64,000 bases of DNA. Source: Minisyncoccota bacterium (GTDB lineage: Bacteria > Patescibacteriota > Minisyncoccia > Phycocordibacterales > UBA5272). The DNA lies in assembly GCA_018063165.1 (NCBI GenBank), contig JAGOQU010000002.1, positions 77,471 to 141,470 of the forward strand, written 5' to 3'. The notes beneath the pieces are model-generated. The model had not been told where the DNA came from and ran no database searches. It saw only the letters and a list, made by a program, of their open reading frames with translations. Both the position numbers and the translations under genes were made by a program. Shown here piece after piece: positions 1-57,073 of this stretch (position 1 is the stretch's first letter; each line of letters begins with the position of its first letter).

Positions 1-25
1 GTCTAAAAAATAATTTTTACTTTAT

Positions 26-1105: not shown

Positions 1106-1170
1106 AAGTACGTATGCTTGGTTTGTTGTTTTGTCACAAAAGACAATGTAACCTGTTATACTAAGTAAGT

Positions 1171-1545: not shown

Positions 1546-1556
1546 TACGTATTACT

Positions 1557-2900: not shown

Positions 2901-2911
2901 AATTACTTATT

Positions 2912-3451: not shown

Positions 3452-3455
3452 ATAA

Positions 3456-3797: not shown

Positions 3798-3870
3798 AAT
3801 AGGTATCTGATTAGTAATTTTTTGAAATAGAATTTGCTTTTCATATTAGTAAGTGCTAATATGAAATAGT

Positions 3871-4137: not shown

Positions 4138-4140
4138 TAT

Positions 4141-4446: not shown

Positions 4447-4459
4447 TTTTTTAAAAACT

Positions 4460-4702: not shown

Positions 4703-4709
4703 AAATAGA

Positions 4710-5728: not shown

Positions 5729-6631
5729 ATGAAAATAATTAAAAATATCGGAGTCTTTGATAGAGTTATTAGATTATTTCTTTCAGAAATTTTTTTCTTA
5801 CTTGCATTTTTCTGGACATATGGAACATTACAGATCGTGTTATACGTTCTTTCGTTTGTAATGCTCGCTACGTCATTATTTAGATTCTGTGGTTTGTATA
5901 CTCTTTTCAAAATAAATACTTGTCCTTCAAATGAAAAGCTCATGTCAAAATTCACAATTGGTTTTTCCGTATTACTTTTTGTTGTAATAGCTGTGGTGGG
6001 AAGTTACTACAGCACCTTCTTCACTAAAAAATTCTTTTTAGAAGATTACAATAGAATGAATCAATACTACAAGCAAACACTTTTCTTTACTGGTCAGAAC
6101 AATCGGACAGAAGCAGTGAGTAATTACACTAATCTTGTGAAAGAGTACAGCGTTTTCTATAATAAATATTATACATATCACCCATTTGTTATTTCAAAAG
6201 ATGAGTATTTTAATGAAGATTTAATTTTAATTAAAGATAAAATTATTTCACTTGAAACTGATGTGAATAGTGGAAACCTACTTTCTACCCATTTGGAATT
6301 TGAAATAATTAGACCAATTTTCCAAGATATTTTAAAAAGGAATAATTTTTCAATGCTTGCTGTTTACTTGGTAGATTTTCATGATGCTATGGAAAAGGTT
6401 ATTGCAGGTGCAGATGCTAAGAATGCTTCAGAAGTTATTTCTGTATATCAAGAGGTAAGTGATAAACTAAAAGCAGTAGAAGATGTTGCAAATGATATAG
6501 AGATACAAACTATTCGTCAGAAATTAGAACAAATCACAGCTTCTGCAAGAAGTGGAAATGTGGAAGTTTTACCTACACAAGGAGCAGAATTAAAAAGTAG
6601 CTTTGTTAAAGTGTATTTAAAGAGAGGATAA
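5729..6631 (+). CDS. DUF2892 (YgaP-like) membrane-domain protein with C-terminal extension of unknown function
   Basis: N-terminus IGVFDRVIRLFL ... RFCGLYTLFKINTCP matches the DUF2892 pattern (DR.IR ... G.CP.Y...G..TC). That domain is commonly associated with rhodanese genes. Confidence 0.45.
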   Translation: MKIIKNIGVFDRVIRLFLSEIFFLLAFFWTYGTLQIVLYVLSFVMLATSLFRFCGLYTLFKINTCPSNEKLMSKFTIGFSVLLFVVIAVVGSYYSTFFTKKFFLEDYNRMNQYYKQTLFFTGQNNRTEAVSNYTNLVKEYSVFYNKYYTYHPFVISKDEYFNEDLILIKDKIISLETDVNSGNLLSTHLEFEIIRPIFQDILKRNNFSMLAVYLVDFHDAMEKVIAGADAKNASEVISVYQEVSDKLKAVEDVANDIEIQTIRQKLEQITASARSGNVEVLPTQGAELKSSFVKVYLKRG

Positions 6632-6915: not shown

Positions 6916-8427
6916 ATGAAGAAAAACATAAAAAATATAATACATAATAGTGTTTATTTTAGACGTGTTTTTTTAATTAAAATAGTATTGTTTATTGTTT
7001 TATGTGTAGGTATTTGGAATGTTTGGAAACCTTTACCTGAAAATATTAATAAAAAATGGGGGCAAAGAAATGTGAATGAATCTCAGGTTGCATTTTTGCA
7101 AGACACTACTTACTTTACTTCCGAGGGAGAAAGGAAAGTTGATCAACATATTTTTAATGAAGTTATAGGTATGGTGCGTAATGCGCATTCCTATATTCTT
7201 GTAGATATGTTTTTATGGAATGATTATCTTGGTGGATCAACTACAACACAAAGAAAAATCGCACAAGAATTAGCAACAGAACTTATTCTTAAAAAGAAAG
7301 AAAATCCAAATATAGTAATTGAAGTAATTAGTGACCCTATTAATATTTCCTATTACGGAGGAGTGTCTGATATTTTTGAAAACATGAAAAAGTCTGGTAT
7401 TGATGTAACATTTACGAACCTTTCAAAATTAAGAGACAGTAATCCACTTTTTTCTTCTTTTTGGAGAGTTTTTGTTAATTCTCTTGATATGTTACACGTA
7501 TATCTTTTTAATTCTTATTATACATTTAGAATTTTCCCTAATATTATTAATGCTGGTGGTGAGCCTGTAACACTACGATCATTTCTCTCATTGTTAAATT
7601 TTAAAGCTAACCATAGAAAATTAATAGTTACAGATGAGTTTAGAGAGGGTGGTATACATTATGTAAGCTTAGTGGCATCAGCAAATCCTCACGATGGATC
7701 AAGTTCTCATAGTAATGTAGCAATTAAGATTGACGGTGATATAGCGAAAGATATTATTCTAAGTGAAAATCAGATTTTAAATCTCTCAGGAAAAAGTACT
7801 AAAGCTCAGACATTAGATAACGTTGCGCCTAGTGGTGATATAAAAGTTGCTTTAGTTACAGATGGTGCTATTAAAGATGAAGTTATTTCTCTTATAAGAA
7901 ATACACAAAAAGGTGATTCTATTAATCTGTTAATGTTTTATATTTCAGATAGGGATATTATTAGAGAATTGGTTGATGCTGCAAAAAGAGATGTTTCTGT
8001 GCATATTATTCTTGACCCAAATAAAGATGCGTTTGGAAGAGAGAAAAATGGAATTCCTAATAGAGAAACCGCTGATTCTTTAGTTAAAAAAAGTTCCAAT
8101 AAAATAGTTATTAGATGGTGTGATACACATGGAGAACAGTGTCATGGAAAAATGCTATTAGTAAAACAAAAAGATACACATTCAGTGTTACTTGGTTCAG
8201 CTAATTATACAAGAAGAAATATCGGTGGATATAATCTTGAGACAGATATTTTAGTAACATCAAAAAATGTATTTACAGCATGGAATGATTCATCAGAATA
8301 TTTTTCAAAACTTTGGAATAATGAAAATATGCTTTTTACAACTGAATATACTGTATACAAAGACGAATCAGTTTTTAAGAAAATAATTTCTTGGATAATG
8401 GAAAATAGTGGAGTAGGAACATTTTAA
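6916..8427 (+). CDS. phospholipase D / cardiolipin synthase family protein
   Basis: N-terminal transmembrane segment. Two HKD-like motifs: HRKLIVTD ... SANPH and HGKMLLVKQKDTHSVLLGSANYTRRN. Confidence 0.55.
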   Translation: MKKNIKNIIHNSVYFRRVFLIKIVLFIVLCVGIWNVWKPLPENINKKWGQRNVNESQVAFLQDTTYFTSEGERKVDQHIFNEVIGMVRNAHSYILVDMFLWNDYLGGSTTTQRKIAQELATELILKKKENPNIVIEVISDPINISYYGGVSDIFENMKKSGIDVTFTNLSKLRDSNPLFSSFWRVFVNSLDMLHVYLFNSYYTFRIFPNIINAGGEPVTLRSFLSLLNFKANHRKLIVTDEFREGGIHYVSLVASANPHDGSSSHSNVAIKIDGDIAKDIILSENQILNLSGKSTKAQTLDNVAPSGDIKVALVTDGAIKDEVISLIRNTQKGDSINLLMFYISDRDIIRELVDAAKRDVSVHIILDPNKDAFGREKNGIPNRETADSLVKKSSNKIVIRWCDTHGEQCHGKMLLVKQKDTHSVLLGSANYTRRNIGGYNLETDILVTSKNVFTAWNDSSEYFSKLWNNENMLFTTEYTVYKDESVFKKIISWIMENSGVGTF

Positions 8428-10829: not shown

Positions 10830-11968
10830 TTGTTAATATAGGTAGTTCTTCAAAAAAATATTCTTTCTACAGTAAAGGAGAGCTAGTTCTTGGTGCTCAT
10901 TTTGAAAAAGATAAAGAAATATTTGAGGTGACGTATGGAAAAGAAGACCCAACCCCTATATCTAAGAATGTCTTTAATGATAGTATTTCAGCATTTTATA
11001 ATGCGCTTTATGCTAGAAAAATAATACAAGAGGGCGGTGTCACTGTATCTGCAATAGGAATGAGAATGGTTGCACCAGGTTTATATTTTACTGAGAATAG
11101 AATTGTCGATTCATTTTTTATGAATATGCTTAAAGAGGTTTCAAAAGAAGATTCTTTACATATTGAGCCTATACAAAAGGAGTTATCAAGAATAAAAGAA
11201 ATTTTTGGAGAAGTTAAGGTGTTTGCAATATCGGATAGTGCTTTTCATCGCACCATGCCGAGTGTTTCAAAAAATTATGCTTTACCAAAGAAAATTATTG
11301 AAGAGTTTGGTTTGTATCGTTTTGGGTATCATGGTATTTCGCTTGCAAGCATAGTGTCTTCGTTAGTAAAAAGAAGTGTTCCACTAGAAAGAAAAATAGT
11401 TATTTGTCATCTTGGTAGTGGTGCTAGTGTGACCGCAGTTCTTGATGGTAAAAGTATAGAGACATCTATGGGGTATTCTCCTCTTGAAGGTCTTGTAATG
11501 AGTTCACGTACTGGTTCTATTGATGTTGGTGCTATTCTTCGTCTTTTTGAAAAAGGTAATACAGAAGAGCTTAGAGAAACTTTTTATAACAAAAGTGGTC
11601 TTTTGGCTCTTAGTGGTCTTTCTAACGATATGAGAGTTCTTATTGATAAAGAAAAAGAAGGTCATGTTGGTGCCAAAAATGCAATAGACGCTTTTGCTTA
11701 TGGTGTAAGAAAACATATAGCTATGGCAGTATCTGCACTTAACGGTATAGATCTTCTTGTTTTTTCTGGAACAATAGGAGAAAGATCTTTTATTCTTCGT
11801 GAGCGTATTTGTAGAGATTTAGGATGGCTAAATGTTAATGTAGACAATGAAAAGAATATACTTGCAAAAAGTGGTGAGTATATAAGTGTATATGGTTCAC
11901 TTGGTGTATGTGTGATGCATAGTGATGAGGATATAGAAATTATGAATAATGTTGAGGATCTTTTATAA
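10811..11968 (+). CDS. ackA: acetate kinase
   Basis: 385 aa. N-terminal ILVVNIGSSSKKYSFY matches the acetate kinase signature (LVLNCGSSSIKY). The start overlaps the xfp 3' end by 19 nt. Confidence 0.85.
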   Translation: MEKNILVVNIGSSSKKYSFYSKGELVLGAHFEKDKEIFEVTYGKEDPTPISKNVFNDSISAFYNALYARKIIQEGGVTVSAIGMRMVAPGLYFTENRIVDSFFMNMLKEVSKEDSLHIEPIQKELSRIKEIFGEVKVFAISDSAFHRTMPSVSKNYALPKKIIEEFGLYRFGYHGISLASIVSSLVKRSVPLERKIVICHLGSGASVTAVLDGKSIETSMGYSPLEGLVMSSRTGSIDVGAILRLFEKGNTEELRETFYNKSGLLALSGLSNDMRVLIDKEKEGHVGAKNAIDAFAYGVRKHIAMAVSALNGIDLLVFSGTIGERSFILRERICRDLGWLNVNVDNEKNILAKSGEYISVYGSLGVCVMHSDEDIEIMNNVEDLL

Positions 11969-11986
11969 ACAATCTAAATATAATAT

Positions 11987-12598
11987 ATGAACTTTACTAA
12001 AAAATATTTCCCCCTGTTTCTTCTTCTTGTTTATGTTTTATTGTTTATAGTTCTTGGTATTAATCCGTACGATAGAGATGTTTGGTATGTAGAAAATGGT
12101 CCTATAGTAGCTATTGTTATATTTCTCGTTGTTTCTTGGTACCGAGGTCTTAGATTTTCCAATCTTTCATACCTTCTTATGAGTGTTCTTTTGTATATGC
12201 ATACAATTGGTGGTCATTTTACGTTTGAAAGAGTTCCTTTTGAATGGTTTAATACTTTTTTTGGTTTTGAAAGAAATATGTATGACAGAATAGCGCATTT
12301 TAGTGTTGGGTTTTATGCGTACCCTTTCGCAGAGTATCTTCTTACAAGAAAACTTGTCGCAAAAAAGTGGATAGCATATGCAATGCCACTCTTTTTTATT
12401 ATGGCATTAGCTGCTTTATATGAAATGTTTGAATGGTGGTATGCTGCTTCTTTTGGAGGTGAAGCTGGTGCTGCTTTTCTTGGTTCACAAGGGGATATTT
12501 GGGATGCACAGAAAGATATTCTTATGGATACATTAGGTGCCATTTTTTCACTTATATTATTTTTATGTGTTCAAATAGTTGGTACAAGTAAAAAATAG
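11987..12598 (+). CDS. YjdF/DUF2238-like integral membrane protein
   Basis: Multi-transmembrane protein. HTIGGHFTFERVP and RNMYDRIAHFSVGF resemble DUF2238. Recalled from memory, so low confidence. Confidence 0.35.
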   Translation: MNFTKKYFPLFLLLVYVLLFIVLGINPYDRDVWYVENGPIVAIVIFLVVSWYRGLRFSNLSYLLMSVLLYMHTIGGHFTFERVPFEWFNTFFGFERNMYDRIAHFSVGFYAYPFAEYLLTRKLVAKKWIAYAMPLFFIMALAALYEMFEWWYAASFGGEAGAAFLGSQGDIWDAQKDILMDTLGAIFSLILFLCVQIVGTSKK

Positions 12599-12635
12599 AA
12601 CAAGAATCTGTTAATTCGTGTGATATACTTTTCTT

Positions 12636-13280
12636 ATGAAAGTTAACCCTGATGTAAAACCTGTTTCTAAAATACGATATTATGCCTCCTTGTTAGAAGC
12701 CGTTATTGTTTTTATTGGAAGTGTTTTTGCTACACATTATGCAAGTAAGTTTGCTGAAGTACATGCAAGTGGACATGTAAATGATATTATTTTAAGTAAC
12801 ACTCAGGTGTATAATTTTGAGTTAGTCTTTGTTGAAGGTGCTATAGTTCTTTCACTTTTTGTTATTGCTCTTTGTTTTAAATTTAGAAAGACAGCACCTT
12901 TTCTTATTAAAGCTGTTTCATTGTTTATTATTATTAGGGCAATATTTGTTTCGCTTACTCATATTGGACCATTTCCAACAAAGTTAGTTCTTGAATCAAG
13001 AGCTCTTGATTTTATTACTTCTGGAAATGATTTGTTTTTTTCTGGGCACACAGGACTTCCTTTTCTTATTGCTCTTATTTTTTGGAACCATCTTTATATT
13101 AGAACCATTTTCCTTGCTGGATCTGTTGTTCTTGGTGCTAGTGCTTTACTTGCTCACCTACATTATTCCATTGATGTCTTCGCAGCGTTTTTTATTACCT
13201 ACAGTATTTATCATATTTCTATCAAGCTTTTCAAGAAAGATTTTGATTTTTTTACACTAGAAGATACTAAACATAAGTAA
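12636..13280 (+). CDS. PAP2-superfamily-like integral membrane protein
   Basis: Multi-transmembrane protein. FSGHTG matches PAP2 motif 2 (PSGH) and HLHYSIDV matches motif 3 (H...D). Confidence 0.4.
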   Translation: MKVNPDVKPVSKIRYYASLLEAVIVFIGSVFATHYASKFAEVHASGHVNDIILSNTQVYNFELVFVEGAIVLSLFVIALCFKFRKTAPFLIKAVSLFIIIRAIFVSLTHIGPFPTKLVLESRALDFITSGNDLFFSGHTGLPFLIALIFWNHLYIRTIFLAGSVVLGASALLAHLHYSIDVFAAFFITYSIYHISIKLFKKDFDFFTLEDTKHK

Positions 13281-13338
13281 TTATTAATATGTATATGTAC
13301 TATGCTTGTAGTTTTTTGATTGTGTTATACTTTATATA

Positions 13339-13752
13339 ATGAAAAAACAAGACGCTTCGATGCCTAGTGTTCACATGGACTATCATCCTAAATTAGTTAA
13401 AGAGGGTGTTTTTATTCTTGAAGAAGAAGTGTGGAGTACTCAAAAGCGTATAGCACGTATTTATGGTAGAAGTATTCCTACAATAAACGATCATCTTAAG
13501 AAAATATATCAAGAAAAAGAACTCATGAAAGCTTTGAGTGAACGTATACTTATGGTTACTCAACAAGAGGGGAAGAAAAAGGTTGCGAGAAAAACATATG
13601 TGTATAATAGTGATATGGTTATTGCTATAGGTTTTCGTGTGAAAGGAGAGTGGGGTAAAGAGTTTCGTGTATGGGCACGTGAAGTGGTAAGAGCGAGTTA
13701 TGATCCAAGAGATCAGGTAAGACATCTTATAGGTAGTCACCCCTTAGGATAA
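13339..13752 (+). CDS. RhuM-family protein, N-terminal fragment (truncated)
   Basis: 137 aa. QKRIARIYGRSIPTINDHLKKIYQEKEL ... GFRVKGEWGKEFRVWAREVV matches the N-terminal region of RhuM-family proteins, which are about 330 aa full length. Its 3' end overlaps the convergent FAD-oxidase gene. Confidence 0.45.
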   Translation: MKKQDASMPSVHMDYHPKLVKEGVFILEEEVWSTQKRIARIYGRSIPTINDHLKKIYQEKELMKALSERILMVTQQEGKKKVARKTYVYNSDMVIAIGFRVKGEWGKEFRVWAREVVRASYDPRDQVRHLIGSHPLG

Positions 13753-15336
13753 TTTTTTTCTTGTTAAGTGTTCTTTGGAATAATTTAGTGTAATGCCTAA
13801 TTTTTTACCTGGATTAAATATGTGAAGCGGATCCCATGCTTCTTTTATTTTTTTAAATATATCAACAGTAGCTTCGTTATACACAAAAGGTAGATAAGGT
13901 GTTCTAGAAACACCTTCACCATCTTTTGCGCTTATTCCTCCTTTATATTTTTTTATAATAGTAAAAATAGTCTGAGTATAGTTTTCTATTTCTTGTTCAT
14001 ATGTTAGAGAAAGAGGGTTGAAAAGAGTTGTAACAGAAATATGACCACTTCCTGCGTTTCCGGTTATTACGTATAATTTTCCAGTTGAATAAAGGTATGT
14101 TTCTAATTCCTCTAAAACAAGAGCGTATTTAGTATTGGAGACTATAAGTGCGTCACAGGAGTATATTGGGGTAAGCGAACCTTGTGTGTATGTTTGTAAC
14201 AGATTTTCTAAAAAAGAAGTTTCTGTTATTTTTTCAATAAAAGAACTGTCCTCGTACACAATACTATTGTTATTTTGTAGATGTGTTTCGTGTGTATATT
14301 TTTTTATGCAATTTTTTACATGTTCTTCGCTGTTTCCGTAAAAAGAAATACATAGAGCGTACGATGCATCGGGGAAAGATAAAAGAGTTTCTGGTCTATA
14401 TCTGTCTGTAAGTTCCATGAAAGTAGAGTCATAGAGAAAAATATGATCAGCATTATGTTGCACAGCTTTTTCTATGTAATTATGCATACTTTCTTTTTCT
14501 TGTATAGGTATACATATCGTTTCTGTATATTGTTTTAGAGGCGTTAATCGTAATGTTACTGTTGTAATTATTCCTAGAGTACCCTCTGATCCAACAATGT
14601 GATTAATAAGTTGCCGTGGGCCTATAGAAGTATTCCATAAGGCATACCCCGTAGCATCATCATTTATATCTGGCTTAGATGCACGAAGCATGGGGCCATT
14701 TTCTGTAAGTATAGGAAAAATAGATTGATAAATACCAAGTAATCTACCACTAGGGCTTACACCATCTCGTATGTGATGTTCCTCACCTGTGTCCACAACA
14801 ATAGTAATGTTCTCTACCCATTCTCGTATTGTGCTTTGTCTAAAAGATGTAGGTGTAACACTTTTAGTTGCTAGTAATGAGGCTATAGTAGAGTGATTGT
14901 TTTGTGCAGTAAGTATTGGAATATCTACATGTAGAGCGTGTAGTTGTTCTCTTAGTTTTTTTATAGTAACACCTGCGTCAACAGTTATTGTTTGGTCAAG
15001 TACATTAATTTGACGTATGTGATTAAAATACCTTGTCATATCAATAATGATCCCTTCACCAATAGAACCTCCTGTATTTGAGGTGCCGTTACCTCTTACT
15101 GTTACAGGCATAGTATATTCACGTGCAAAAGAAAGAATATGTTTTATGTCTGTAACATTTTTTGGATAGAGTATGGCTTGCGGTCTTATTGTGTAAGGTG
15201 ATTTTGTGGTACTGTATTTTTGTATAGATTCTAAGGAACATTCAATTTCACCAGTAATAGATTTTGCTAGTTCTGAAAAAAGAGGGGGAACATGAGAAAA
15301 AATGTTAGATACCTTTATCATAGATACTCTCACCAT
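13744..15336 (-). CDS. FAD-linked oxidase (GlcD/D-lactate dehydrogenase family)
   Basis: 530 aa. N-terminal FAD_binding_4-like region (YTMPVTVRGNGTSNTGGSIGEGIIIDM) and a C-terminal FAD-oxidase-like region. Confidence 0.65.
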   Translation of the reverse strand: MVRVSMIKVSNIFSHVPPLFSELAKSITGEIECSLESIQKYSTTKSPYTIRPQAILYPKNVTDIKHILSFAREYTMPVTVRGNGTSNTGGSIGEGIIIDMTRYFNHIRQINVLDQTITVDAGVTIKKLREQLHALHVDIPILTAQNNHSTIASLLATKSVTPTSFRQSTIREWVENITIVVDTGEEHHIRDGVSPSGRLLGIYQSIFPILTENGPMLRASKPDINDDATGYALWNTSIGPRQLINHIVGSEGTLGIITTVTLRLTPLKQYTETICIPIQEKESMHNYIEKAVQHNADHIFLYDSTFMELTDRYRPETLLSFPDASYALCISFYGNSEEHVKNCIKKYTHETHLQNNNSIVYEDSSFIEKITETSFLENLLQTYTQGSLTPIYSCDALIVSNTKYALVLEELETYLYSTGKLYVITGNAGSGHISVTTLFNPLSLTYEQEIENYTQTIFTIIKKYKGGISAKDGEGVSRTPYLPFVYNEATVDIFKKIKEAWDPLHIFNPGKKLGITLNYSKEHLTRKKLS

Positions 15337-15599
15337 TTTTATAGACTAAAAAAACAACAATTGTTAAAGCAAGTAATATACATAACACCAGAAAAAGGTG
15401 TCTAAATATAACATGGAATGTTTGTTTTTCGGACAGAACTATTTTCTCCTTAGAGGTGTCTTCTTGCAGTGTTTGTTCCATGGTATACAGTATACATCGT
15501 TTGTATAAACTTCTTTATATTTTTTTGTCCACATATACTCTTTTATGATTACGCGATATACTAATATAGATACATTTATTAATTATACATATACTATCT

Positions 15600-17636
15600 A
15601 TGAAGTTTTTATCAACATTTTTTTCTAAGCTTTATCAATACGCTACTGTTTGTATTGTTGTAGGTTCACCTTTATTTTTTATACCTAATACTAGCTTTTC
15701 TCCGGATGTTACTTATTATGTAACTATGGGTATTTTGGTGGCAATCGCACTTCTATCATATGTTGTGTCAGCGCTCATAACACGTTCTTGGCACAGTCTT
15801 TCAAGACTTGAGTTTATTTCATATTTCGCATTCTCACTTGCTGTTATTTTGTCTGTGCTTTTTGCAAAAAATCAGCGCTTTAGTTTGTTTGGTGAAGTGT
15901 TGGAACCTGCATCAGGGGCTGCACTGTTATCGCTCCCGGTAATTATGTATCTTGTGAGAACTCTTCCAGAAAAACTTCGTCATACTCTAAAACTCATTCT
16001 AGGTTCACTTCTAGGTATATCAGCTTTTACGTTTGTAACAGCTCTTATGTATAATGGTGCTATAACTTCCTTCACAAAGCAAATATTTTCTGGTTTCATT
16101 AGTCCTGTTTCTTTTGCTATATATATTGGTTTGTTTGCTGTTGCTTGTCTTTTCTTTGTATTTAAAGGAACGCTTCCTAAAAAACATAAAATTGCTATAG
16201 GTATAACAGGTGTTCTTTTCTTTATGTGGGCATTTGCTATCTCAGCACAAGATGGGGTTAGACCTAACTTCACAAGTACAATGCTTGTTGGTAAAGGTGT
16301 TATGTTAAACGAGGGTGTGTTTGGTATCGGTTCAGGTAATTTTACTAGAGCTTGGCAACTATATAGACCACAAAGTGTTATTAATTCAGAGTATTTTGGA
16401 TATGATTTCAATCAAGGTTCAAGTACAATGAGTACAATTTTTGTAACATTAGGTATTTTTGGTCTTCTGTCATTCCTATTTCTTGTTATTTCTGCTTTAT
16501 ACAATACAGTGATGACGTATCGTCAGAATAAAGAAGGTCAAGAACATTTTATTTTAGGTTTCTTATCTGTTTCTCTTATGTATCTTCTTGTTGCTTCTTT
16601 CTTTTTACCATTTTCATATGCAATGCTTGTCGTGTGGATGGTTGTTTCTGGACTTGGTTTAGCAAAAACAAAATTAACCGAGTATCATCCAAGCAAAAAA
16701 ATAGCATTCCTTATGATTCCACTTACTGTTATATTGGTAAGTCATATGTTTATAACAATTGATAAAGTTAGAGCATTTTCTGTATACAGTATGGTTCAAA
16801 CTGCAAAAACACCAGAAGATTCTTTGAAATATTTAGTTAAAGCTGCTCAAATTTATCCATATGATGGCTTTTATAGACTCCAAGTTGAACAATTAATTCA
16901 AGCGAATAGAAATCTGGTATCTGTTGCAACAGATGATCAAGAAGCATTAAAGAATGAATATCTTGAAACATCTAAAAAAGCCGTAGATGCTGCTTTGTTT
17001 GCTGTAAAACTTAATCCAAATAGTTATCAAAATTATGTTTCTCTAGGTAGGGCGTATGAACTTGCTATACCTTTTGATAAAGAAAATGGATTTGATAGAG
17101 CAAAAAAAGCATACGAAGAAGCTGTTAAGTTATATAAAGATAATCCATATTTGTACTTAATGCTTGCACGTTTAGAGTCTTCTGCAGGTACAAAAGAAGG
17201 AGTTAGACAAAATTTAACTGACGCTCTTAAAAAGAAGCAGAATTTTACAGATGCTCTTTATCTTATGAGTCAGCTTGAAGCGTCAGATAGTAAAATAGAT
17301 GAAGCTATTAACTATGCTGTAGAAGCTATAAAAAGTTCACCAAATGAACCATTAGTATATATACAAGCAGGATTATTATTCTACGGTAAAAAAGATTATG
17401 AGAATGCTGTATATGCACTCAAAGTAGCTCTTGAAAAAGATCAAAATAATGCTAATGTTGCTTACTTCTTAGCTCTAGCTCTTCGTGACGGGGGTCGTCC
17501 TGATATAGCTAAACAAATAGCTGAAGAACTACTTAAACGTAATCCTGACAATGCAGATCTTGTTGCTTTTATTAAAACGCTTGAAGTAAAAGCTGAACCT
17601 GTTTTACCAGAAACAACAAAGAAGACTAAAAAATAA
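15600..17636 (+). CDS. O-antigen ligase (Wzy_C)-like polytopic membrane protein with C-terminal TPR repeats
   Basis: About 10 transmembrane segments with GxGxGNF (FGIGSGNF), followed by roughly 230 aa of TPR-like repeats. Confidence 0.55.
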   Translation: MKFLSTFFSKLYQYATVCIVVGSPLFFIPNTSFSPDVTYYVTMGILVAIALLSYVVSALITRSWHSLSRLEFISYFAFSLAVILSVLFAKNQRFSLFGEVLEPASGAALLSLPVIMYLVRTLPEKLRHTLKLILGSLLGISAFTFVTALMYNGAITSFTKQIFSGFISPVSFAIYIGLFAVACLFFVFKGTLPKKHKIAIGITGVLFFMWAFAISAQDGVRPNFTSTMLVGKGVMLNEGVFGIGSGNFTRAWQLYRPQSVINSEYFGYDFNQGSSTMSTIFVTLGIFGLLSFLFLVISALYNTVMTYRQNKEGQEHFILGFLSVSLMYLLVASFFLPFSYAMLVVWMVVSGLGLAKTKLTEYHPSKKIAFLMIPLTVILVSHMFITIDKVRAFSVYSMVQTAKTPEDSLKYLVKAAQIYPYDGFYRLQVEQLIQANRNLVSVATDDQEALKNEYLETSKKAVDAALFAVKLNPNSYQNYVSLGRAYELAIPFDKENGFDRAKKAYEEAVKLYKDNPYLYLMLARLESSAGTKEGVRQNLTDALKKKQNFTDALYLMSQLEASDSKIDEAINYAVEAIKSSPNEPLVYIQAGLLFYGKKDYENAVYALKVALEKDQNNANVAYFLALALRDGGRPDIAKQIAEELLKRNPDNADLVAFIKTLEVKAEPVLPETTKKTKK

Positions 17637-47316: not shown

Positions 47317-48045
47317 ATGACATCAAAATTGACCATATCTTTACTAACTCTTTGTGTTTTATTTTTCTTTATTAATGGTTTTTTTGATTTTTCTAATTCA
47401 CAATTAGACAAAATCTATCTCACGGTAAGTACTTTTTTATTTTCCATATTTAATGGTTTTTTTATTTCAAGACAATCAAGTAGATATAGTGAGATTCGTA
47501 ATAATTTAAGCCGTTTCGATGCAAATATGAGTATTATTTTTCGAGAAAGTTCTCATTTAACAAAAGAAGAACATGCATATTTTGGAGATGTTATTAAAGA
47601 GTATTATATGAAGATACTTTCAAGTAAAGATTGGTCATACTATTTTACACATAAAACAGATTTGATATCAAAACTTCATGTGTATTTAGAAAAATGTGGT
47701 GAAGCAGGAATGGATAAAATACGTGGAGAGGCTCAACGTAAAATATTAGGTACCTTAGATGACGTTCAAATAATACGAAAGGTATTAGTTTCTCTTAAAG
47801 AAGAAACAATACCTCGTTTTCAGCAGTTTTTTATTTATACTTTGGCTGTAATTTTATTTTTAGCAATTATGACTCTTCCTTCAGAGGGTCTTGTTGTTGC
47901 GTCTATTTTAAAAAGTGTGTATATGGTTACGGTGATTTCTGTGGTAATACTTCTTAAAAAGTTTAATGATTTGACGTTGTTTGAGGGTGTTATAGGTGAG
48001 CATAGCGCAAGAGATGTTGTGGGTATTATAGATGGGGAGAAATAG
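47317..48045 (+). CDS. hypothetical membrane protein
   Basis: 242 aa with N- and C-terminal transmembrane helices. Confidence 0.4.
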   Translation: MTSKLTISLLTLCVLFFFINGFFDFSNSQLDKIYLTVSTFLFSIFNGFFISRQSSRYSEIRNNLSRFDANMSIIFRESSHLTKEEHAYFGDVIKEYYMKILSSKDWSYYFTHKTDLISKLHVYLEKCGEAGMDKIRGEAQRKILGTLDDVQIIRKVLVSLKEETIPRFQQFFIYTLAVILFLAIMTLPSEGLVVASILKSVYMVTVISVVILLKKFNDLTLFEGVIGEHSARDVVGIIDGEK

Positions 48046-48953: not shown

Positions 48954-49466
48954 CTATTTTGCTTTTTCGAGTACAACCATCATAGATTTTGGTATTTTTT
49001 TGAGAGGTTCTGCGATTTTGTAGTCAGCGGGGACAATAGCCAAAATACGGTTCATTCTTTCACGAAGAAACTTCTCATCCATGTATTTTGTTCGTCCTTT
49101 TAGCTGAAGATCTATCTTTACTCGATGACCTTCGTTGATCCATTCAGCTGTTTTTTTAGCTTTCATCATAAGATCATTGTCACTAATAGACACACTTATC
49201 TGTACTGTTTTTGTTTCGGTGACATGTGCCTTTGCCTTTACTTCCTTTAATTTTTTTGAAGTTTCGTAGGTGTATTTTCCATAATCTGCTATACGAGCAA
49301 CAGGTGGGTCAGCATGTGGAGATACTTCTATTAGATCAAGTCCTACATTTTTAGCTTGAAGAAGAGCTTCTTCTTTTGTAAGAACACCTAAATTATCTCC
49401 GTTGTGTCCAATGACACGAAGTTTAGGTGCACGTATATTGTTATTGATGTTTACTTTTTCTGCCAA
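48954..49466 (-). CDS. infC: translation initiation factor IF-3
   Basis: NIRAPKLRVIG ... GLDLIEVSPHADPPVARIADYGKYTYE is highly similar to bacterial IF3. The true start codon may be a non-ATG. Confidence 0.8.
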   Translation of the reverse strand: MAEKVNINNNIRAPKLRVIGHNGDNLGVLTKEEALLQAKNVGLDLIEVSPHADPPVARIADYGKYTYETSKKLKEVKAKAHVTETKTVQISVSISDNDLMMKAKKTAEWINEGHRVKIDLQLKGRTKYMDEKFLRERMNRILAIVPADYKIAEPLKKIPKSMMVVLEKAK

Positions 49467-49572
49467 AGCGTTATATGAATACTATTATAGCACGAAATTA
49501 GAGAAAAGGGAATGATTTTGTGATAGACTTAGATTGCTATAAACAATAATTAGTAATAACAATATAAAGTAT

Positions 49573-50070
49573 ATGTCTCTTCTTTTTTTTATTGCATCTA
49601 CACCGCATCTTTTTTTTATTGCATCTATACTACATCTTTTTCTACCAATTGTAATTTATTTTCGTACTTTACCTAGCTTGAAGAGAGATTATCTGGAAGG
49701 GAAAAATACTCTTAAGGTTTCCATTTCAAAACTTAATACTATTTTTTTGATTCCACTTTTTATTGGTATTGCTTTTGTTCTCGTTTCTAGTTTTCTGGTG
49801 CACAAACTTAATATTATTAATGATAATGCTATGGCGATTGGATTTATAAGTATCTATTTAATAATTTCAACTTTCACTCTTTTACCAATTGTTTCGACAA
49901 TCTTAACGGTTATTGCTTATTTCAAGTTAAAGGAGTTTAAGGAGAATGGTGGAGTAGATGGCAAATTTTCAAGTGCGCTTAATATGTTTACACGATACTT
50001 CTTTTATTTTATTTTGTTACTAATTGTTTCAATTTGTATTGCCTTTTTAATAGCAAGTCAACTCAATTAA
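49573..50070 (+). CDS. hypothetical polytopic membrane protein
   Basis: 165 aa, about 4 transmembrane segments. Its 5' end contains a 30 bp tandem duplication. Confidence 0.4.
   Translation: MSLLFFIASTPHLFFIASILHLFLPIVIYFRTLPSLKRDYLEGKNTLKVSISKLNTIFLIPLFIGIAFVLVSSFLVHKLNIINDNAMAIGFISIYLIISTFTLLPIVSTILTVIAYFKLKEFKENGGVDGKFSSALNMFTRYFFYFILLLIVSICIAFLIASQLN
49583..49640 (+). repeat. about 30 bp tandem direct repeat (2 copies) at the 5' end of the CDS
   Basis: TTTTTTTTATTGCATCTACACCGCATC and TTTTTTTTATTGCATCTATACTACATC, encoding LFFIASTPH and LFFIASILH. Confidence 0.6.
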
Positions 50071-50152
50071 TTTAGTAATAAAAAGAAAGAACGATGGCAT
50101 GCTCATTTCATTTAAAGTGGAAGGTTGGTACATTGAAATGTGAGTAGAAATT

Positions 50153-50235
50153 CGGGCACATGCTTGACCAGAATTTGAGAAGTTAAAAATACTTTCGGAG
50201 TGTAGTATTGGGTTTAGTGAGTGGTTGAAGAGGGG
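50153..50235 (+). repeat. copy A of an approximately 83 bp dispersed repeat
   Basis: About 85 percent identical to 51912..51993. Shared core CGGGCACA...CCAGAATTTGAGAAGTTAAA...ATTGGGTTTAGTGA.TGGTTGAA. Confidence 0.6.
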
Positions 50236-50247
50236 TATAAAGTTCAA

Positions 50248-51405
50248 TTAGAGACCGTTTCTTTGTTTGGATGTATGTAATAATGCCCCATTCTTTAATA
50301 TATCAGCAATTTTTTGAGCTTTATCTAGAGGTTGTCCAGGAATTAAAATTCCATTAAATAAGAAACCGCCTTGCCCTGTTTGTGCTTGCTGTGAAGCATT
50401 TGTTATTTTCACATTAGAAATTCCTAGTACTCTATCAATGATACCTTGCTCAATCGTAACATCTTGAATCGTGTTGTAAGGTGCATGTTTTTCTTGTCTA
50501 GAAATAATACCAGATTTGAGATATATATATTCTGGTGTAAATTTAAAAGAGAATGTTTTTTTCCAAAAAAAGGTGTAAATATTTTTAAATATAAAAAGAA
50601 TAAAGAAAATAAGAGAAATAATCAAAGTGTTTACTTGTATTTGAAATTTGTTCGCAACAGAGAATGAGCTTTCTCCTGTAGAAAAAAGAACATAACATAC
50701 GAGTAGTGTGTAAAAAAAACTCCACATGATACTACCTAACATTCTTGCGATTATCCAATTACCAGAAATTGGATACGTTTTTATTGAAACTTCTTCATTA
50801 ATATTAAAGGTTTCTGATTTATTTTTTGTTTGTTCATTTGATGTTGTTGAAGATTTATTCATTTCCAATGAGTAGTAGTTGTTACTCCTTTCTTTTATTT
50901 TTTGTAAAAATGTATTTTTTAAACGTTCTGCTGTTTCTGCATCAACTCCATCAATATGTGCCTCGATTCCAGAATTGGCGGTTGCACTTGCAATGTGAAC
51001 ATCATATAACCCAATAACCCTGTCTATAATATCTTGATCAACATATACATCTTGAATTTTTTGATATTGTACATGTATTTCTGTTGGAGAAAAAATACCT
51101 TTTTTAATTGTAATAAAATCAGAGTCCGTATCATAGAAATAATATTTTATATAAGCTTTTATGTAAATAGCTTCGAAAATCATTAGTGAAATGAACATAG
51201 TTAAGTAAATAGAGATTCCTACAGTAACTAAAGATTCTGAACTATTTAATTGAGTATTACTTAATATGTAAACAACAAAAATAATTAAAGAAAGAAATGC
51301 TGAAAGTAGACTAATTGAAACAGCTTCTTCAAGAAACTTCTTCCAGAATTTTCTTGGATTAAGTGGGTTGTTAATCTGAAAGTTGCTTTTAATTGAGTTT
51401 GACAT
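50248..51405 (-). CDS. membrane protein with two bacterial PH (bPH_2/DUF304, YdbS/YdbT-like) domains
   Basis: Two repeats of the pattern KKGIFSPTEIHVQYQKIQDVYVDQDIIDRVIGLYDVHI and KSGIISRQEKHAPYNTIQDVTIEQGIIDRVLGISNVKI, each following transmembrane helices. Confidence 0.55.
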   Translation of the reverse strand: MSNSIKSNFQINNPLNPRKFWKKFLEEAVSISLLSAFLSLIIFVVYILSNTQLNSSESLVTVGISIYLTMFISLMIFEAIYIKAYIKYYFYDTDSDFITIKKGIFSPTEIHVQYQKIQDVYVDQDIIDRVIGLYDVHIASATANSGIEAHIDGVDAETAERLKNTFLQKIKERSNNYYSLEMNKSSTTSNEQTKNKSETFNINEEVSIKTYPISGNWIIARMLGSIMWSFFYTLLVCYVLFSTGESSFSVANKFQIQVNTLIISLIFFILFIFKNIYTFFWKKTFSFKFTPEYIYLKSGIISRQEKHAPYNTIQDVTIEQGIIDRVLGISNVKITNASQQAQTGQGGFLFNGILIPGQPLDKAQKIADILKNGALLHTSKQRNGL

Positions 51406-51850
51406 ATTAATGCTAAATTATTATATATTAGTAATAATTGTACCATGTTTCCCTAGTCTTATTCTAAGTTATTAAATTTTGTAAATAGGTTAGTAAAACT
51501 AAAATTCAACAGGAAAAGTTTATTTTAGTTGTTTTTAAAATAAAATATAAGCAGTGTGTACACATTATGGACACCCAATCCAAATTACAACTCGAAAAAC
51601 TTTATTGTTTAGCTATTTTTGCTACAAATACGACTAACTTTTATAATACGATAAAGGTGGGCTTCATCGGTCACCGCTACGGATCGCTTTGAAAAGCTTT
51701 GCTTTCCTCATCTCGGCACGTAGCCTCGACCCCGAGAAAAACCGACAAAATTATTTCTAAAAACACTGAACCCAGTTTTTGGAAATAATTGTGTAGACGG
51801 TTTTTCGTTTGATTCCGACATAAGTCAGTTTGAAATGACTTATTCCCATC

Positions 51851-51907
51851 TCTACAGAAATAAATTAAACCGCATCAATTGATGCGGTTTAATTATTTCT
51901 GTGGAGA
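51851..51907. repeat. long imperfect inverted repeat with perfect 24 bp palindromic core
   Basis: TCTACAGAAATAAATTAAACCGCATCAATTGATGCGGTTTAATTATTTCTGTGGAGA. The core AAACCGCATCAATTGATGCGGTTT is a perfect palindrome. Confidence 0.6.
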
Positions 51908-51911
51908 TAAA

Positions 51912-51993
51912 CGGGCACACGTCGAACCAGAATTTGAGAAGTTAAAGATAGTATCAGAGTATATTATTGGGTTTAGTGATTGGTTGAAAAAAG
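51912..51993 (+). repeat. copy B of the approximately 83 bp dispersed repeat
   Basis: See copy A. Both copies lie just 3' of minus-strand genes, at 50248 and 52017. Confidence 0.6.
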
Positions 51994-52016
51994 AAAATAT
52001 CCTTAAATAATTAACT

Positions 52017-52994
52017 TTATTTAATTCTAATCATCCTTCCGTTTCCTGGAATTGGATTTCCTTCTTTATCTTTTAAGGTGCCCCACTCATCCCATTTGTT
52101 TGCAATTTCTGGTGGAATTAATTTCGCCCATTTTTTCCAATCTTTATCACCATCAGGGGTTACTACATAGACACGTTTAAGCTCATCTGCTTCCCAGCCA
52201 TTCTTTTTAACAAGATTTCCTGTATGTCCTTTCTTTCCATTGATTTTATTTAAAATCATTAATGTTTTATCCCAACGTTTAACATCTACATTTTTTAGAA
52301 AACGTGCCAACTGACCGCCTTGCATAAAAGGTACATTTTCAAACGAATTTAAATTTTTCCAAATAGTTTCCTTTGCTTCTGAAATAGTTAAACCACTTAG
52401 CCCCTTCACACTGTTTTGAAGTTGTATCCCAACAGATTGAGTCATTTTGTCATTTAAAAATTCATCCACAGTGTTATAGCTAAGAGCTAAAGAAAACCAA
52501 CACAAAAGATTATCTTTTCTATACGTATCTTCATTTTGATTTTCAGCAAGAATATCTGTATCATAACTATATTCAGTATCCCTCTTTTCGACCTTAACAG
52601 AAACAAATGTTGGCAGTCCTCCAATTTTGGAATTGTACCCTACAGCATTTTTTAAATAATTAATCATACCAGCACCAGAATCAGCAACAAAAACACCAGC
52701 ACCATCGGGGGTATTATCATTACCAATATTTTTTATATCGAGTTTTTCTTTTGGTTTTAGACCGTTAGCAAGAATACTATCAATAATTCCCCCTCCTTCT
52801 CCAGTTAAAGTTCCATGCCAGTAATATTCGGCTTTCGGCATTCTTTCTAAGTTAATCTGAGGAGTTTCGATGTTTTTAGTTTCAGGTGATTCGACGAGGT
52901 ATTTTTCATCCTGTTCTTTAGGGGAGAGCTTTTGTGCTTGTTTTTTATCCCTAGTTTCTGTTTTATTTTCTGGTAATGATTCTAGTGTTGTCAT
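52017..52994 (-). CDS. PARP/Tpt1 (KptA)-fold ADP-ribosyltransferase-like protein
   Basis: YYWHGTLTGEGGGIIDSILANGLKPKE and GAGVFVADSGAGMINY align to the PARP catalytic signature (LLWHGS..N..GIL..GL and G.GIYFAD...S..Y). They also align to Tpt1/KptA (LYHGT ... GL ... HYVHLSAD). A low-complexity N-terminus and about 150 aa of C-terminal extension of unknown function. Confidence 0.45.
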   Translation of the reverse strand: MTTLESLPENKTETRDKKQAQKLSPKEQDEKYLVESPETKNIETPQINLERMPKAEYYWHGTLTGEGGGIIDSILANGLKPKEKLDIKNIGNDNTPDGAGVFVADSGAGMINYLKNAVGYNSKIGGLPTFVSVKVEKRDTEYSYDTDILAENQNEDTYRKDNLLCWFSLALSYNTVDEFLNDKMTQSVGIQLQNSVKGLSGLTISEAKETIWKNLNSFENVPFMQGGQLARFLKNVDVKRWDKTLMILNKINGKKGHTGNLVKKNGWEADELKRVYVVTPDGDKDWKKWAKLIPPEIANKWDEWGTLKDKEGNPIPGNGRMIRIK

Positions 52995-53185
52995 ATTGAA
53001 TAGTATAACTCTTTTTTTAGAAATAAATAGTTGGAGGAATCGGTCACAAAACTACCTCGCTTTGCTCGAAGTAGTTTCCCGACCCGTATTCGATTCCGCC
53101 GAAAGCCAAGCAGTTGGCTTTCTCCTTTTCCTCACTGAAATATAAAAATACCCCTAGGGTTACCTAAGGGTATTTTTATATTTAG

Positions 53186-53575
53186 TGGAGGTGGGCGGAA
53201 TCGAACCCCCGTGTACTAAGGTATGATGCATGGGTCTACTGTACGTAGTTTGCTTATATGTGTTCGCATGCATTATAGAAAACAAACGAAAACAATGAAT
53301 GTATAGCATGAATTATTTCAATAGTAATGCTATGCAACATTACAATCTACTTCCACTGTTATATTGCCCAGACTTTTTCCGTGGTTACGAAAAAGAAGGA
53401 CACCCGGTCGGCCAGTATTTAGGCGAACGCAGGAACTAGACCAAACGCGTATGGCGATGGAATAGCCTTACCAGTTGTTTTTGCAACATGGGCGCTCTAA
53501 CGTTAACGAGTGCTAGAGCAGTCTCGGTACAGCGCATACAACATATTCTTAGTGTCAAAGCCAAAGATCACCCCC
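53186..53575 (-). ncRNA. ssrA: tmRNA (ssrA)
   Basis: Minus-strand 5' end GGGGGUGAUCUUUGGCUUUGACAC resembles tmRNA 5' ends (GGGGCUGAUUCUGGAUUCGAC). The 3' end has a T-arm GGGGGUUCGAUUCCGCC and acceptor CACCUCC pairing with the 5' GGGGGUG, then A/CUA. An internal ORF begins at a GCA resume-like codon and encodes AKTTGKAIPSPYAFGLVPAFA followed by stop. smpB is adjacent. Confidence 0.7.
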
Positions 53576-53655: not shown

Positions 53656-54090
53656 CTATTTGCTTTCACGTAGTTCTCTACGTGCTATATCTTTTTTGAT
53701 ATCTTCTCGTTTATCTCGAGAATCTTTTTTCTTGCACACTGCAACATCACATTTGATGAGGCCATGTGCATCGTACAATGAATTAGGAGCAAGTGTCAAG
53801 GTTTTTGATTGTTCTTTTTGAAAAAGTTCTGTGATCTCTGATTTTTTAAGGAGTAATTTTCGTGTTCTGTAAGCATCATATGATTTTGGAGTATTAGATG
53901 CTTGATAGGGTGGAATGTACACACCAACCAAAAAAGCTTCACCACCGCGAATAAGAACCTTTGCTCCGTCTAGTGACCCTTGTTTTTTTCTGAGTGCTTT
54001 TACTTCAAAACCAAAAAGCTCAATACCTGCTTGATATGACTCTTGTATTACATGTGTAAGGTGAAGTTTTTTACTTTCTATTAATTTCAT
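53656..54090 (-). CDS. smpB: SsrA-binding protein SmpB
   Basis: EVKALRKKQGSLDGAKVLIRGGEAFLVGVYIPPY ... YRTRKLLLKKSEI matches SmpB (GTEVKSLR ... ISPY ... RTRKLLL). Confidence 0.85.
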   Translation of the reverse strand: MKLIESKKLHLTHVIQESYQAGIELFGFEVKALRKKQGSLDGAKVLIRGGEAFLVGVYIPPYQASNTPKSYDAYRTRKLLLKKSEITELFQKEQSKTLTLAPNSLYDAHGLIKCDVAVCKKKDSRDKREDIKKDIARRELRESK

Positions 54091-54183
54091 TTCTGTTATT
54101 TTAACACACTATTAGATTTGTTTATTGTTTTAGTTTGTCGTAGAGTATGTAAAGAAGTTCTTACATTAAAAGGAGAAATAGGT

Positions 54184-54522
54184 ATGGCAGATAAAAAAAT
54201 ACCAAAAGCTGTTAAACGCTGGAGAAGAGATAGAAATATAAGACGACTTGAAAGAGATTTCAAGGAGTTGTGGTCTATTCTCAAAGGAAAAAATATACGA
54301 GAAAAAACTACTATTTTTACGGAAGATGAAAAGAAAAAATATTTTTTTAAAAAAGATGCAATTGGAACGATTACGTGTCCTCTATGTGGAAAAGTAACTT
54401 TTGTAGCTAATCCAAATGGTATACATGGTGACGCTTTGTATGATTATATTATGCGCCATAATGCAAAAAAAACTTTATGTAGCGCATCTCTGATGCCTGT
54501 TAAAAACTTTTTTGATGATTAG
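54184..54522 (+). CDS. hypothetical small zinc-ribbon-like protein
   Basis: Internal ATG preceded by AAAGGAGAAATAGGT. CPLCG ... H ... C motif and a basic N-terminus. Confidence 0.35.
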   Translation: MADKKIPKAVKRWRRDRNIRRLERDFKELWSILKGKNIREKTTIFTEDEKKKYFFKKDAIGTITCPLCGKVTFVANPNGIHGDALYDYIMRHNAKKTLCSASLMPVKNFFDD

Positions 54523-57000: not shown

Positions 57001-57073
57001 TGCGCCCACCAGGACTCGAACCTGGGACCAGTCGTGTATAAGACGACGGCTCTACCAACTGAGCTATAGGCGC
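57001..57073 (-). tRNA. tRNA-Ile (anticodon UAU)
   Basis: Manual fold of the minus strand. Acceptor GCGCCUA / UGGGCGC, D-arm GCUC-AGUUGGUA-GAGC, anticodon stem GUCGU / ACGAC with loop CUUAUAC (U33, A37, anticodon UAU), variable loop UGGUC, T-arm CCAGG-UUCGAGU-CCUGG, discriminator A. No encoded CCA. Confidence 0.75.

Follow-up and report, generated by a model that had tools for sequence, protein, structure and literature searches.

The locus considered here raises the question of what kind of DNA separates the transfer-messenger RNA (tmRNA) gene, ssrA, from infC in a Minisyncoccota bacterium (GenBank assembly GCA_018063165.1, contig JAGOQU010000002.1). Patescibacteria (candidate phyla radiation, CPR) have tiny genomes, and gene gain in them is little understood. 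We analysed a 64,000-nt stretch of this contig (hereafter the window), whose coordinates are used throughout; labels beginning with L denote the related loci with which it was compared. An earlier note on the same DNA had suggested an accessory island integrated 3′ of the tmRNA gene. On the evidence below, we consider it likely that positions 49467-53182 are accessory DNA accumulated at an integration hot spot, which extends from the T-loop to the 3′ end of ssrA, and that the segment is now a decayed array without a recombinase of its own. The genes that frame it are:

smpB, 53656-54090, minus strand: upstream of ssrA and on the same strand (Pfam scan)
ssrA (tmRNA), 53183..53575, minus strand: full-length match to Rfam RF00023 (81.4 bits, E = 5e-30); its 3′ end is the proposed integration target
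infC, 48954..49466, minus strand: Pfam IF3_N and IF3_C, with synteny; first gene of the infC-rpmI-rplT flank and distal boundary of the variable segment

The earlier note had placed the 3′ end of the tmRNA gene at 53186, which is the position of the discriminator A, and the Rfam match runs to 53183. The gene ends in ...CCTCCA-CTA (CUA in the RNA) without an encoded CCA, unlike the tmRNA genes of L009, L011, L012 and L017, which do encode CCA; ARAGORN failed to call it despite the Rfam score. On the minus strand the order is smpB, ssrA, 188 nt of non-coding DNA, a gene termed orf325, a 611-nt stretch free of open reading frames (ORFs), a bPH gene, an ORF of 165 amino acids (aa) on the plus strand and infC-rpmI-rplT, with 3720 nt between infC and the tmRNA end.

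A scan for SmpB provided 80 species-level loci for synteny. The order smpB-ssrA-gap-infC-rpmI-rplT is kept in 26 related Paceibacteria, within a wider conserved arrangement in which smpB through rplT are read in one direction, with FtsH before them and SLOG and MBL genes after them on the opposite strand. The gap itself is hypervariable: infC lies directly near ssrA in L062, L016, L084 and L082 (29, 63, 68 and 127 nt from the tmRNA end, respectively) and at 474 nt in L009, while others hold up to ~7 kb of unrelated cargo (7038 nt in L012), so that gap length spans 240-fold across relatives. The cargo is unrelated from genome to genome, comprising two DUF1295 paralogues, SPFH, BtpA, ParB_N with LAGLIDADG and a tRNA, or an FAD monooxygenase. 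By tetranucleotide usage the segment is the most deviant of the 3.6-kb windows (L1 distance 0.243, against a mean of 0.165 with a standard deviation of 0.022); the compositional deviation anticipated in the earlier note was therefore found in tetranucleotides and not in guanine + cytosine (GC) content, to which we return below. With the block not conserved in relatives and its tetranucleotide composition deviant, the suggestion of an island came through the comparison that could have undone it. We conclude that accessory DNA has entered repeatedly at the ssrA-infC junction of Paceibacteria.

Recombinases are present at this very site in relatives. Large serine recombinase genes (Resolvase, Recombinase and Zn_ribbon_recom domains, ~480-570 aa) abut the ssrA 3′ end in L008, L043, L059, L076, L070 and L031, and in these six they lie on the opposite strand and continue into the tmRNA 3′ end, with no stop codon before it; L043 has an additional small serine recombinase beside the large one. 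Because the recombinase ORFs are stopless up to the junction, the phage-type attachment site (attP) would be part of the recombinase gene, within its 3′ end, and integration would alter the C-terminus of the protein. Among 141 ORFs downstream of ssrA in relatives, serine recombinase domains occur in 7-8 and belong to the most frequent families, and tyrosine integrases were absent from the families represented at least twice. Recombinase ORFs reading into the tmRNA were located at L008 7946-9649, L043 10904-12370, L059 10730-12376 and L036 10875-11495 (all on the minus strand), with C-termini such as ...WRWAESNRRVIRYEI.

The 188 nt that follow ssrA are conserved in relatives despite their differing cargo. 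In the sense of the tmRNA, the conserved order is the tmRNA 3′ end; an AT-rich terminator hairpin; the reverse complement of the acceptor strand (GTGGAGRTGG); a hairpin, hp1, with a loop that is usually CTGC; the reverse complement of T-loop and T-stem; at least one hairpin; a conserved arm (GGGGTCGNGA, a stem-loop and TNGTGAC); and the tmRNA 3′ end once more, in direct orientation and from inside the T-loop onward. We refer to this unit as the mini-element. Its inverted 12-mer matches each genome's own tmRNA; of 50 loci, 9 have it between +75 and +145 with at most one mismatch, and 2 more at lower stringency; elsewhere, only two matches occurred in ~700 kb.

Two of the relatives provide an empty and an occupied site. 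L017 and L019 are 97.7% identical over 10.9 kb, and L019 carries an additional ~209 nt placed precisely at the tmRNA 3′ end, of which 19 nt are directly repeated on either side; L017 represents the empty site. The unit therefore behaves as an insertion or deletion at an attachment (att)-like repeat, and the L019 copy would in effect be a recombinase-less miniature element. In L032, L047 and L045 the 3′ 17-mer of the tmRNA recurs in direct orientation, exactly or nearly so, at +139 to +211, and no such copy was found in the window at up to three mismatches. The direct copies start at (T)CGATTCC or CAATTCC in L019, L032, L047, L045, L006 and the window's own first copy (E1, below), and the predicted insertion point lies within the T-loop, with the repeat running from there to the 3′ end. 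The hp1 stem is 98.4% paired over 14 copies, with double compensatory changes at 8 of its 9 pairs and no G-U pair in 126 stem cells, a pattern that hints at a constraint acting at the DNA level, such as a putative hairpin or dyad-symmetric binding site.

The modules occur in two copies each in L047, L048, L061 and L005 and in three copies in L098; in L047, L048 and L061 the element copies are in tandem, 0.6-0.8 kb apart. The same internal modules were also found 3′ of tRNA-Ser(GCT) (L043 560-840, L029 5230-5470, L048 4700-4940 and L020 4360-4605) and 3′ of tRNA-Ile(UAU) (L025 1760-2080 and L051 6330-6550). There, the direct and inverted arms match the T-loop-to-3′-end segment of that tRNA itself, and in L043 ...TTTGTGAC followed by CGAATCCCACCGTCTCC is an exact repeat of the tRNA-Ser 3′ end. 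Sequence comparison thus suggests a family of small elements whose members are adapted to several different t(m)RNA genes. No prior description of such a family was found in the literature, in a limited search that does not prove novelty.

For the window itself, two covariance models were built from relatives only, with the window sequence excluded; R1 spans the module from the tmRNA 3′ end to the inverted T part, and R2 the arm and the direct copy. They delimit two copies of the mini-element:

E1, 53024..53182, minus strand: mini-element of ~160 nt directly after ssrA; R1 match at 53086-53195 (82.4 bits) and R2 match at 53024-53088 (61.4 bits)
E2, 51651..51915, minus strand: decayed second copy of the mini-element, with collinear R1 and R2 matches

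R1 gave E-values of 1e-18 for E1 and 3e-9 for E2 (51805-51915, 44.4 bits), with a background no better than 0.05 (best background score 15.8 bits). The R2 match on E2 (51651-51735, 17.9 bits, E = 0.004) ranks second in the window and lies collinear with that of R1. Because the element is palindromic, both strands score with the covariance model. E1 comprises, in this order, the hairpin of the ssrA terminator (53138-53183), the tmRNA acceptor strand copied as its reverse complement, hp1 (53101-53122) and GGCGGAATCGAA (53089-53100), which repeats T-loop and T-stem in the same inverted sense; an inner hairpin and the P arm (...GTGAC) follow, and then CGATTCC-TCCAAC (~53030-53046), where the tmRNA 3′ end is copied directly in degenerate form. 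This segment is kept beside ssrA in L006, L005, L013 and L019, though their cargo differs. E2 has its palindromic terminator (51848-51908) between ATCTCCACAG and CTGTAGAGATGG; next come a hairpin resembling hp1, GTCGGAATCAAAC, a hairpin insertion at 51736-51806, GGGGTCGAGG...GGTGAC, which resembles the P arm, and the att remnant CGATGAAGCCCACCT. The relationship of the two GC-richer patches was seen with the covariance models only, as blastn-short returned nothing significant between them; a search of 49400-53250 against Rfam at E ≤ 10 gave only spurious, hairpin-driven matches far below gathering scores.

E2 lies in what the earlier note had described as a GC-richer, ORF-free stretch of 610 bp (51406..52016) with a 57-bp inverted repeat around a perfect 24-bp palindrome. 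The stretch is indeed ORF-free, with no ORF longer than 43 aa. Its higher GC content is confined to 51650-51830 (0.431); overall it averages 0.316, which ranks at the 27th percentile among windows of 611 nt and is below the mean of 0.334 for the window, and 51406-51649 has 0.234. The inverted repeat is present in other sizes, namely 61 nt (51848-51908) with a perfect palindrome of 32 nt (51863-51894), and is scored as a bidirectional terminator. By its sequence, the stretch is a decayed second copy of the element that normally follows ssrA, rather than foreign GC-rich DNA, and the palindrome is the E2 terminator. The earlier note had further reported no clear copy of the tmRNA 3′ end and had dismissed an 8-nt match at 51653 as too short to count. 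Both statements need revision: the models find two 3′-end/terminator modules and two degenerate att-like ends, and the 8-nt match, AGGTGGGC, which stands at 51655-51662, falls inside CGATGAAGCCCACCT and is the putative att remnant of E2.

We propose that mobile elements would have integrated into ssrA, each bringing a replacement tmRNA 3′ end and terminator, and that at each integration the old 3′ end and the DNA following it would have been pushed toward infC. Integration would be catalysed by large serine recombinases, which are seen at the site in relatives and presumed for the window. Two generations of a mini-element of ~160-250 nt would have been kept, an intact E1, which would supply the ssrA terminator, and a decayed E2. 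The cargo would consist of an orphan with an ADP-ribosyltransferase (ART) fold between E1 and E2, a bPH gene bracketed by a repeat, and a small membrane ORF, giving the mosaic order E1, orf325, repeat with E2, bPH, repeat and small membrane ORF. The order of these events, the arrival of all window pieces by the same recombination, and a present state that would be either immobile or mobilised only in trans are our reconstruction. An array of this kind accounts for each odd feature listed in the earlier note, whose central suggestion of an island 3′ of the tmRNA gene is borne out by synteny, tetranucleotide usage, recombinases in six relatives and att-like modules inside the segment.

The remaining features of the segment are as follows:

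orf325, 52017..52994, minus strand: orphan protein with a predicted N-terminal ART fold (fold comparison), located between E1 and E2
repeat rep2 (left copy), 51900..51988, minus strand: orthologue at L098 5678-5790 (88.6%)
AT-rich spacer, 51406..51650, minus strand: GC 0.234, upstream of the bPH gene and conserved with it in L098
bPH_2 membrane protein (YdbT-like), 50248..51405, minus strand: cargo gene bracketed by the repeat; Pfam PF03703, E = 6.6e-30, two domains
repeat rep1 (right copy), 50141..50229, minus strand: counterpart at L098 7435-7539, which is followed by an R1 module (65.5 bits)
165-aa hydrophobic ORF, 49573..50070, plus strand: carries an in-frame tandem duplication; absent from all relatives including L098

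Neither orf325 nor the bPH gene nor the 165-aa ORF occurs in any of the 80 species-level loci; the bPH gene is present in a sister genome, L098. As the earlier note had proposed, its product is a bPH-domain membrane protein, scoring 103.6 bits against PF03703 (cut-off 22) over two stretches. It has 432 homologues, mostly at 40-45% identity, and one at 89%. The contig that holds this closest homologue is L098, which has 84-89% nucleotide identity to the window across the flank; 51647-50169 of the window corresponds to L098 6018-7501 at 89%. The AT-rich spacer is presumably the bPH promoter and leader, and a sigma-70 promoter scan gave match counts equal to chance.

The earlier note had also pointed out an 83-bp repeat in two copies, each placed at the same offset 3′ of a minus-strand gene. 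Two copies do stand 3′ of minus-strand genes, as a direct repeat of 89 nt with 81% identity (89% over a 63-nt core); their ends are 19 and 29 nt from the two stop codons, similar and not equal. The window holds no third copy, and the last bases of rep2, CCCGTTTATCTCCACA, form the acceptor-like start of E2. Outside contigs of the same organism, neither the repeat nor the 610-nt stretch had a match by nhmmer or blastn in the 80 species-level loci. L098 likewise has the repeat on both sides of its bPH gene, and each repeat is fused to a well-preserved mini-element (R1 65 bits twice, then R2-like ends), the two copies, at 5774-5981 and 7518-7725, being far from any t(m)RNA gene. With repeat and mini-element fused in L098, the repeated unit would therefore measure ~300 nt, and rep1 of the window would have lost its element. 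Upstream of the bPH unit L098 has an rve-type insertion sequence, an Eco47II-type restriction-modification pair and a Phage_CRI protein; between bPH and infC it has five other ORFs, orf325 and the 165-aa ORF being absent.

Further searches gave no other occurrence or origin of the repeat. An exact 20-mer of its core gave nine matches in JGI metagenomes and one in IMG/VR, all chance matches with unrelated flanks. Derivation from a decayed 3′ tmRNA body was rejected beyond the last ~15 nt, with alignment scores within the shuffled range and no match to the tmRNA model. A serine recombinase C-terminus, as a relic of an attP P-arm, is unsupported, with no tblastn match to the recombinase loci compared and only ORFs of 42-62 aa returned from the database.

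The gene called PARP-like in the earlier note, orf325, is predicted by fold comparison to have an N-terminal ART fold, a split beta-sheet NAD-binding core. Fold comparison alone succeeded: orf325 had no Pfam family at E ≤ 0.1, and its family profile had no ART match among PDB sequences, so the assignment holds at the level of the fold and not of a sequence match. The 325-aa product is identical to a protein annotated in a Candidatus Pacebacteria MAG, which agrees with a CPR origin of the window. The family has 13 representatives at 50% clustering, in unrelated genomic contexts. With regard to an ART catalytic triad (H-Y-E or R-S-E), a WH[GA]T motif is kept in the eight full-length homologues, D145 and D147 are nearly invariant, and no conserved antitoxin or immunity partner was found, the neighbours of the homologues being unrelated. 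In the 165-aa ORF, the tandem duplication noticed earlier at the 5′ end is real, with a period of 27 nt rather than 30 (2.3 copies, 49581-49641).

Several results weigh against a decayed integration array at ssrA. No recombinase, transfer or replication gene was found in the segment by a Pfam scan of every ORF, in which bPH_2 was the sole match and which agrees with the earlier note in finding no integrase. Candidates for the recombinase that would move the mini-elements are present in relatives only, and the recombinase-bearing elements there do not share the left end of the mini-element. The segment contains just two direct copies of the tmRNA 3′ end, both degenerate (~53030-53046; 51651-51665, CGATGAAGCCCACCT), and none was found at the infC end. 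GC content, at 0.314 against a window mean of 0.334 (11th percentile), is not deviant. E1 and both L098 copies share a truncated end, CGATTCCTCC, and the units were therefore probably copied as blocks, and not by independent integrations into ssrA. All compared genomes are metagenome-assembled genomes (MAGs), in which assembly or binning error is a possible source of some of the gap differences.

These points bear on the alternatives to different degrees. That there is no island, and that ordinary fast-evolving chromosomal DNA resembles the tmRNA 3′ end by chance, would suit the GC content near the genome mean, the lack of a recombinase in the segment and the fact that bPH-type proteins are common in the phylum. 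We regard it as highly improbable in view of covariance E-values of 1e-18 and 3e-9 over a background no better than 0.05, a 240-fold range of gap lengths with unrelated cargo, recombinases at the same site in six relatives and the most deviant tetranucleotide usage in the window. A functional RNA is harder to set aside and still quite improbable. In that case E1 would be a structured part of the 3′ trailer of ssrA, or would encode a small RNA, its inverted arm would pair with the tmRNA 3′ end for termination, processing or stability, and the genes beyond would be ordinary lineage-specific ones. The position of the element directly after ssrA in at least 11 of 50 loci (offset +75 to +145), arms that match the own tmRNA, hairpins conserved with compensatory changes and a conserved CTGC loop, and the inclusion of the ssrA terminator would all fit such an RNA. 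Yet the element is present or absent, with a 19-nt direct repeat, between 97.7%-identical genomes; copies lie far from t(m)RNA genes (E2; L098 5774-5981 and 7518-7725); the 126 stem cells of hp1 lack G-U pairs; no Rfam family matches at E ≤ 10; and the palindromic sequence scores on both strands.

Closer to the array is an arrangement in which E1 and E2, more than scars, would serve a cassette platform as its recombination sites, similar to attC and attI of integrons, where a recombinase acting in trans swaps single-gene cassettes (orf325; bPH with the repeat) at ssrA, tRNA-Ser and tRNA-Ile. Single cargo genes do lie between copies (orf325 between E1 and E2, bPH in L098), tandem copies 0.6-0.8 kb apart occur in L047, L048 and L061, the hp1 covariation without G-U pairs fits a DNA hairpin or a dyad-symmetric protein site, and the same internal modules are found at three target genes. 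We nevertheless think this unlikely as the explanation of the segment, with no dedicated recombinase beside the arrays, few cases and no cassette in two different arrays, orf325 homologues in unrelated contexts without the element, and accretion followed by decay accounting for the same layout. It is unlikely, too, that the 89-nt repeat is no junction and represents instead a plus-strand gene for a small protein (42-62 aa) or a 3′-untranslated-region or terminator element common to the two upstream genes. A frame on the opposite strand (...FCGDKRAHVEPEFEKLKI.SE..IGFSEWLKK...) is open and similar in three of four copies (rep2 and both of L098), with several synonymous or conservative changes, and gene callers annotate ORFs of 42, 54 and 62 aa at the repeat. 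However, rep1 has an in-frame stop, the substitutions clearly favour neither strand's frame, database matches are limited to these same small ORFs, and both L098 copies are fused to mini-elements as a unit of ~300 nt.

The decayed array has its closest precedent in Dehalococcoides, where tandem islands directly downstream of the single-copy ssrA form a hypervariable region, bounded by ~20-bp direct repeats of the ssrA 3′ end (McMurdie et al. 2011, PMC3146451). These islands carry a large serine recombinase (~500-540 aa) and a small one on the reverse strand beside attL, and some units lack an integrase and were read as cis-mobilizable or fixed, having been built by accretion (PMC3146451). The likeness extends to L043, which has exactly this pair of a large and a small serine recombinase, and to a tandem array, with two module copies in the window. 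Unlike the Dehalococcoides islands, the segment has no integration module and its repeats are degenerate; its junctions lie within a conserved palindromic mini-element that also contains the tmRNA 3′ end in inverted form, an element that PMC3146451 does not describe; its cargo units are single genes of 1-2 kb and not islands of at least 10 kb; and the host phylum is Patescibacteria. For islands in tRNA and tmRNA genes in general, the target is split and restored by element sequence, a displaced 3′ fragment marks the far end, and insertion takes place in the T-loop to 3′ end of the gene (Williams; Islander/TIGER, PMC4383910). Those resources hold mostly island-encoded tyrosine integrases, whereas here serine recombinases are found in relatives and none in the window.

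Cis-mobilizable elements (CIMEs), which are att-flanked and code for neither recombination nor transfer (Guédon et al. 2017, PMC5704250), offer a second comparison. The ~209-nt insertion of L019, with its 19-nt direct repeat and no genes for recombination or transfer, is alike in this respect, and E1 belongs to the same family by covariance model, with a degenerate repeat. Unlike CIMEs, the mini-elements measure 150-250 nt, far less, consist essentially of att arms and are highly palindromic; related copies stand at tmRNA, tRNA-Ser(GCT) and tRNA-Ile(UAU), and mobilisation in trans is a candidate only. As to integrons, the window has no IntI tyrosine integrase and no tyrosine integrase recurs downstream of ssrA in relatives. 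It is conceivable, although we hold it to be doubtful, that the mini-elements are an undescribed family of miniature integrative elements (~150-250 nt) of Patescibacteria and also landing pads for single-gene cassettes, such as the ART-fold and bPH genes, captured and exchanged by recombinases in trans, an integron-like platform on t(m)RNA genes. The elements may then occupy the 3′ ends of tmRNA, tRNA-Ser(GCT) and tRNA-Ile(UAU), each supplying the terminator of its target and carrying inverted and direct copies of the T-loop-to-3′-end segment of that target. Compared with known ART toxins (pertussis-like ArtA/LT, DarT, Tpt1 and the PARP catalytic domain), orf325 has no sequence match to a Pfam ART family or PDB chain; unlike them it has no neighbouring antitoxin, macrodomain or immunity gene, and its Trp-rich C-terminal half has no known counterpart.

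On this reading the segment is a familiar kind of ssrA genomic island, and the mini-element family is the more novel part. The ssrA-infC locus follows the logic known from Dehalococcoides, with a serine recombinase and a T-loop insertion point, and a short palindromic element marks the junctions. The two covariance models provide a simple marker for island boundaries in CPR MAGs, and in organisms that lack a genetic system the recombinases could be put to use for integration, with the tmRNA T-arm as their natural attB. The orphan ART-fold family is a candidate toxin or defence cargo.

Further observations were made in the gaps of relatives. In L013, the gap (10931-15902) contains genes for ParB_N-domain and LAGLIDADG proteins together with a tRNA of 86 nt, and behind the tRNA comes a full mini-element; its arms are those of a tmRNA target and differ from the tRNA in front of it. 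Small ORFs directly after ssrA in L009 (11020-11256) and L012 (11416-11679) start with M(Y/H)YVYIL.N...KYIG....L..RL.EHN, which is GIY-YIG-like by eye only. After ssrA, L017 (10930-11014) has three tandem copies of a ~30-nt unit, GTGCGTGTACTGCGTAGCTTTAGCGAAGTA, and in L011 (10200-10360) a 42-nt unit, TTTTGGTAGGAC.CTGAGGAATTCTCATCGAAGATGAGAATG, is present in duplicate. L009, L012, L017, L019 and L042 share yet another conserved flank after ssrA, made up of CCACTTCGC, a hairpin and GCTTCGCGGTGCGCGCAC. In L098, positions 1-5700 hold the Phage_CRI replication protein, the Eco47II-type restriction enzyme with its DNA methylase, the rve-family transposase and a type II tRNA-like sequence (~5440-5535), and both assemblies of this organism break at or near that region.

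Outside the segment, a bestrophin-like gene at 47317-48045 (plus strand), between rplT and the SLOG gene, represents a second presence/absence polymorphism, being found in L006, L012 and L098 and missing from L005, L009 and L013-L015. A 134-aa ORF with CxxC pairs and no Pfam match lies between smpB and ftsH (54118-54522, plus strand); its sole match among relatives is a weak one in L012 (37% over 70 aa), which makes this another variable spot, on the other side of smpB. Lastly, a gene for tRNA-Ile with the anticodon UAU, a tRNA uncommon in bacteria, adjoins ftsH at 57001-57073 (minus strand) and holds the same position in most related loci.

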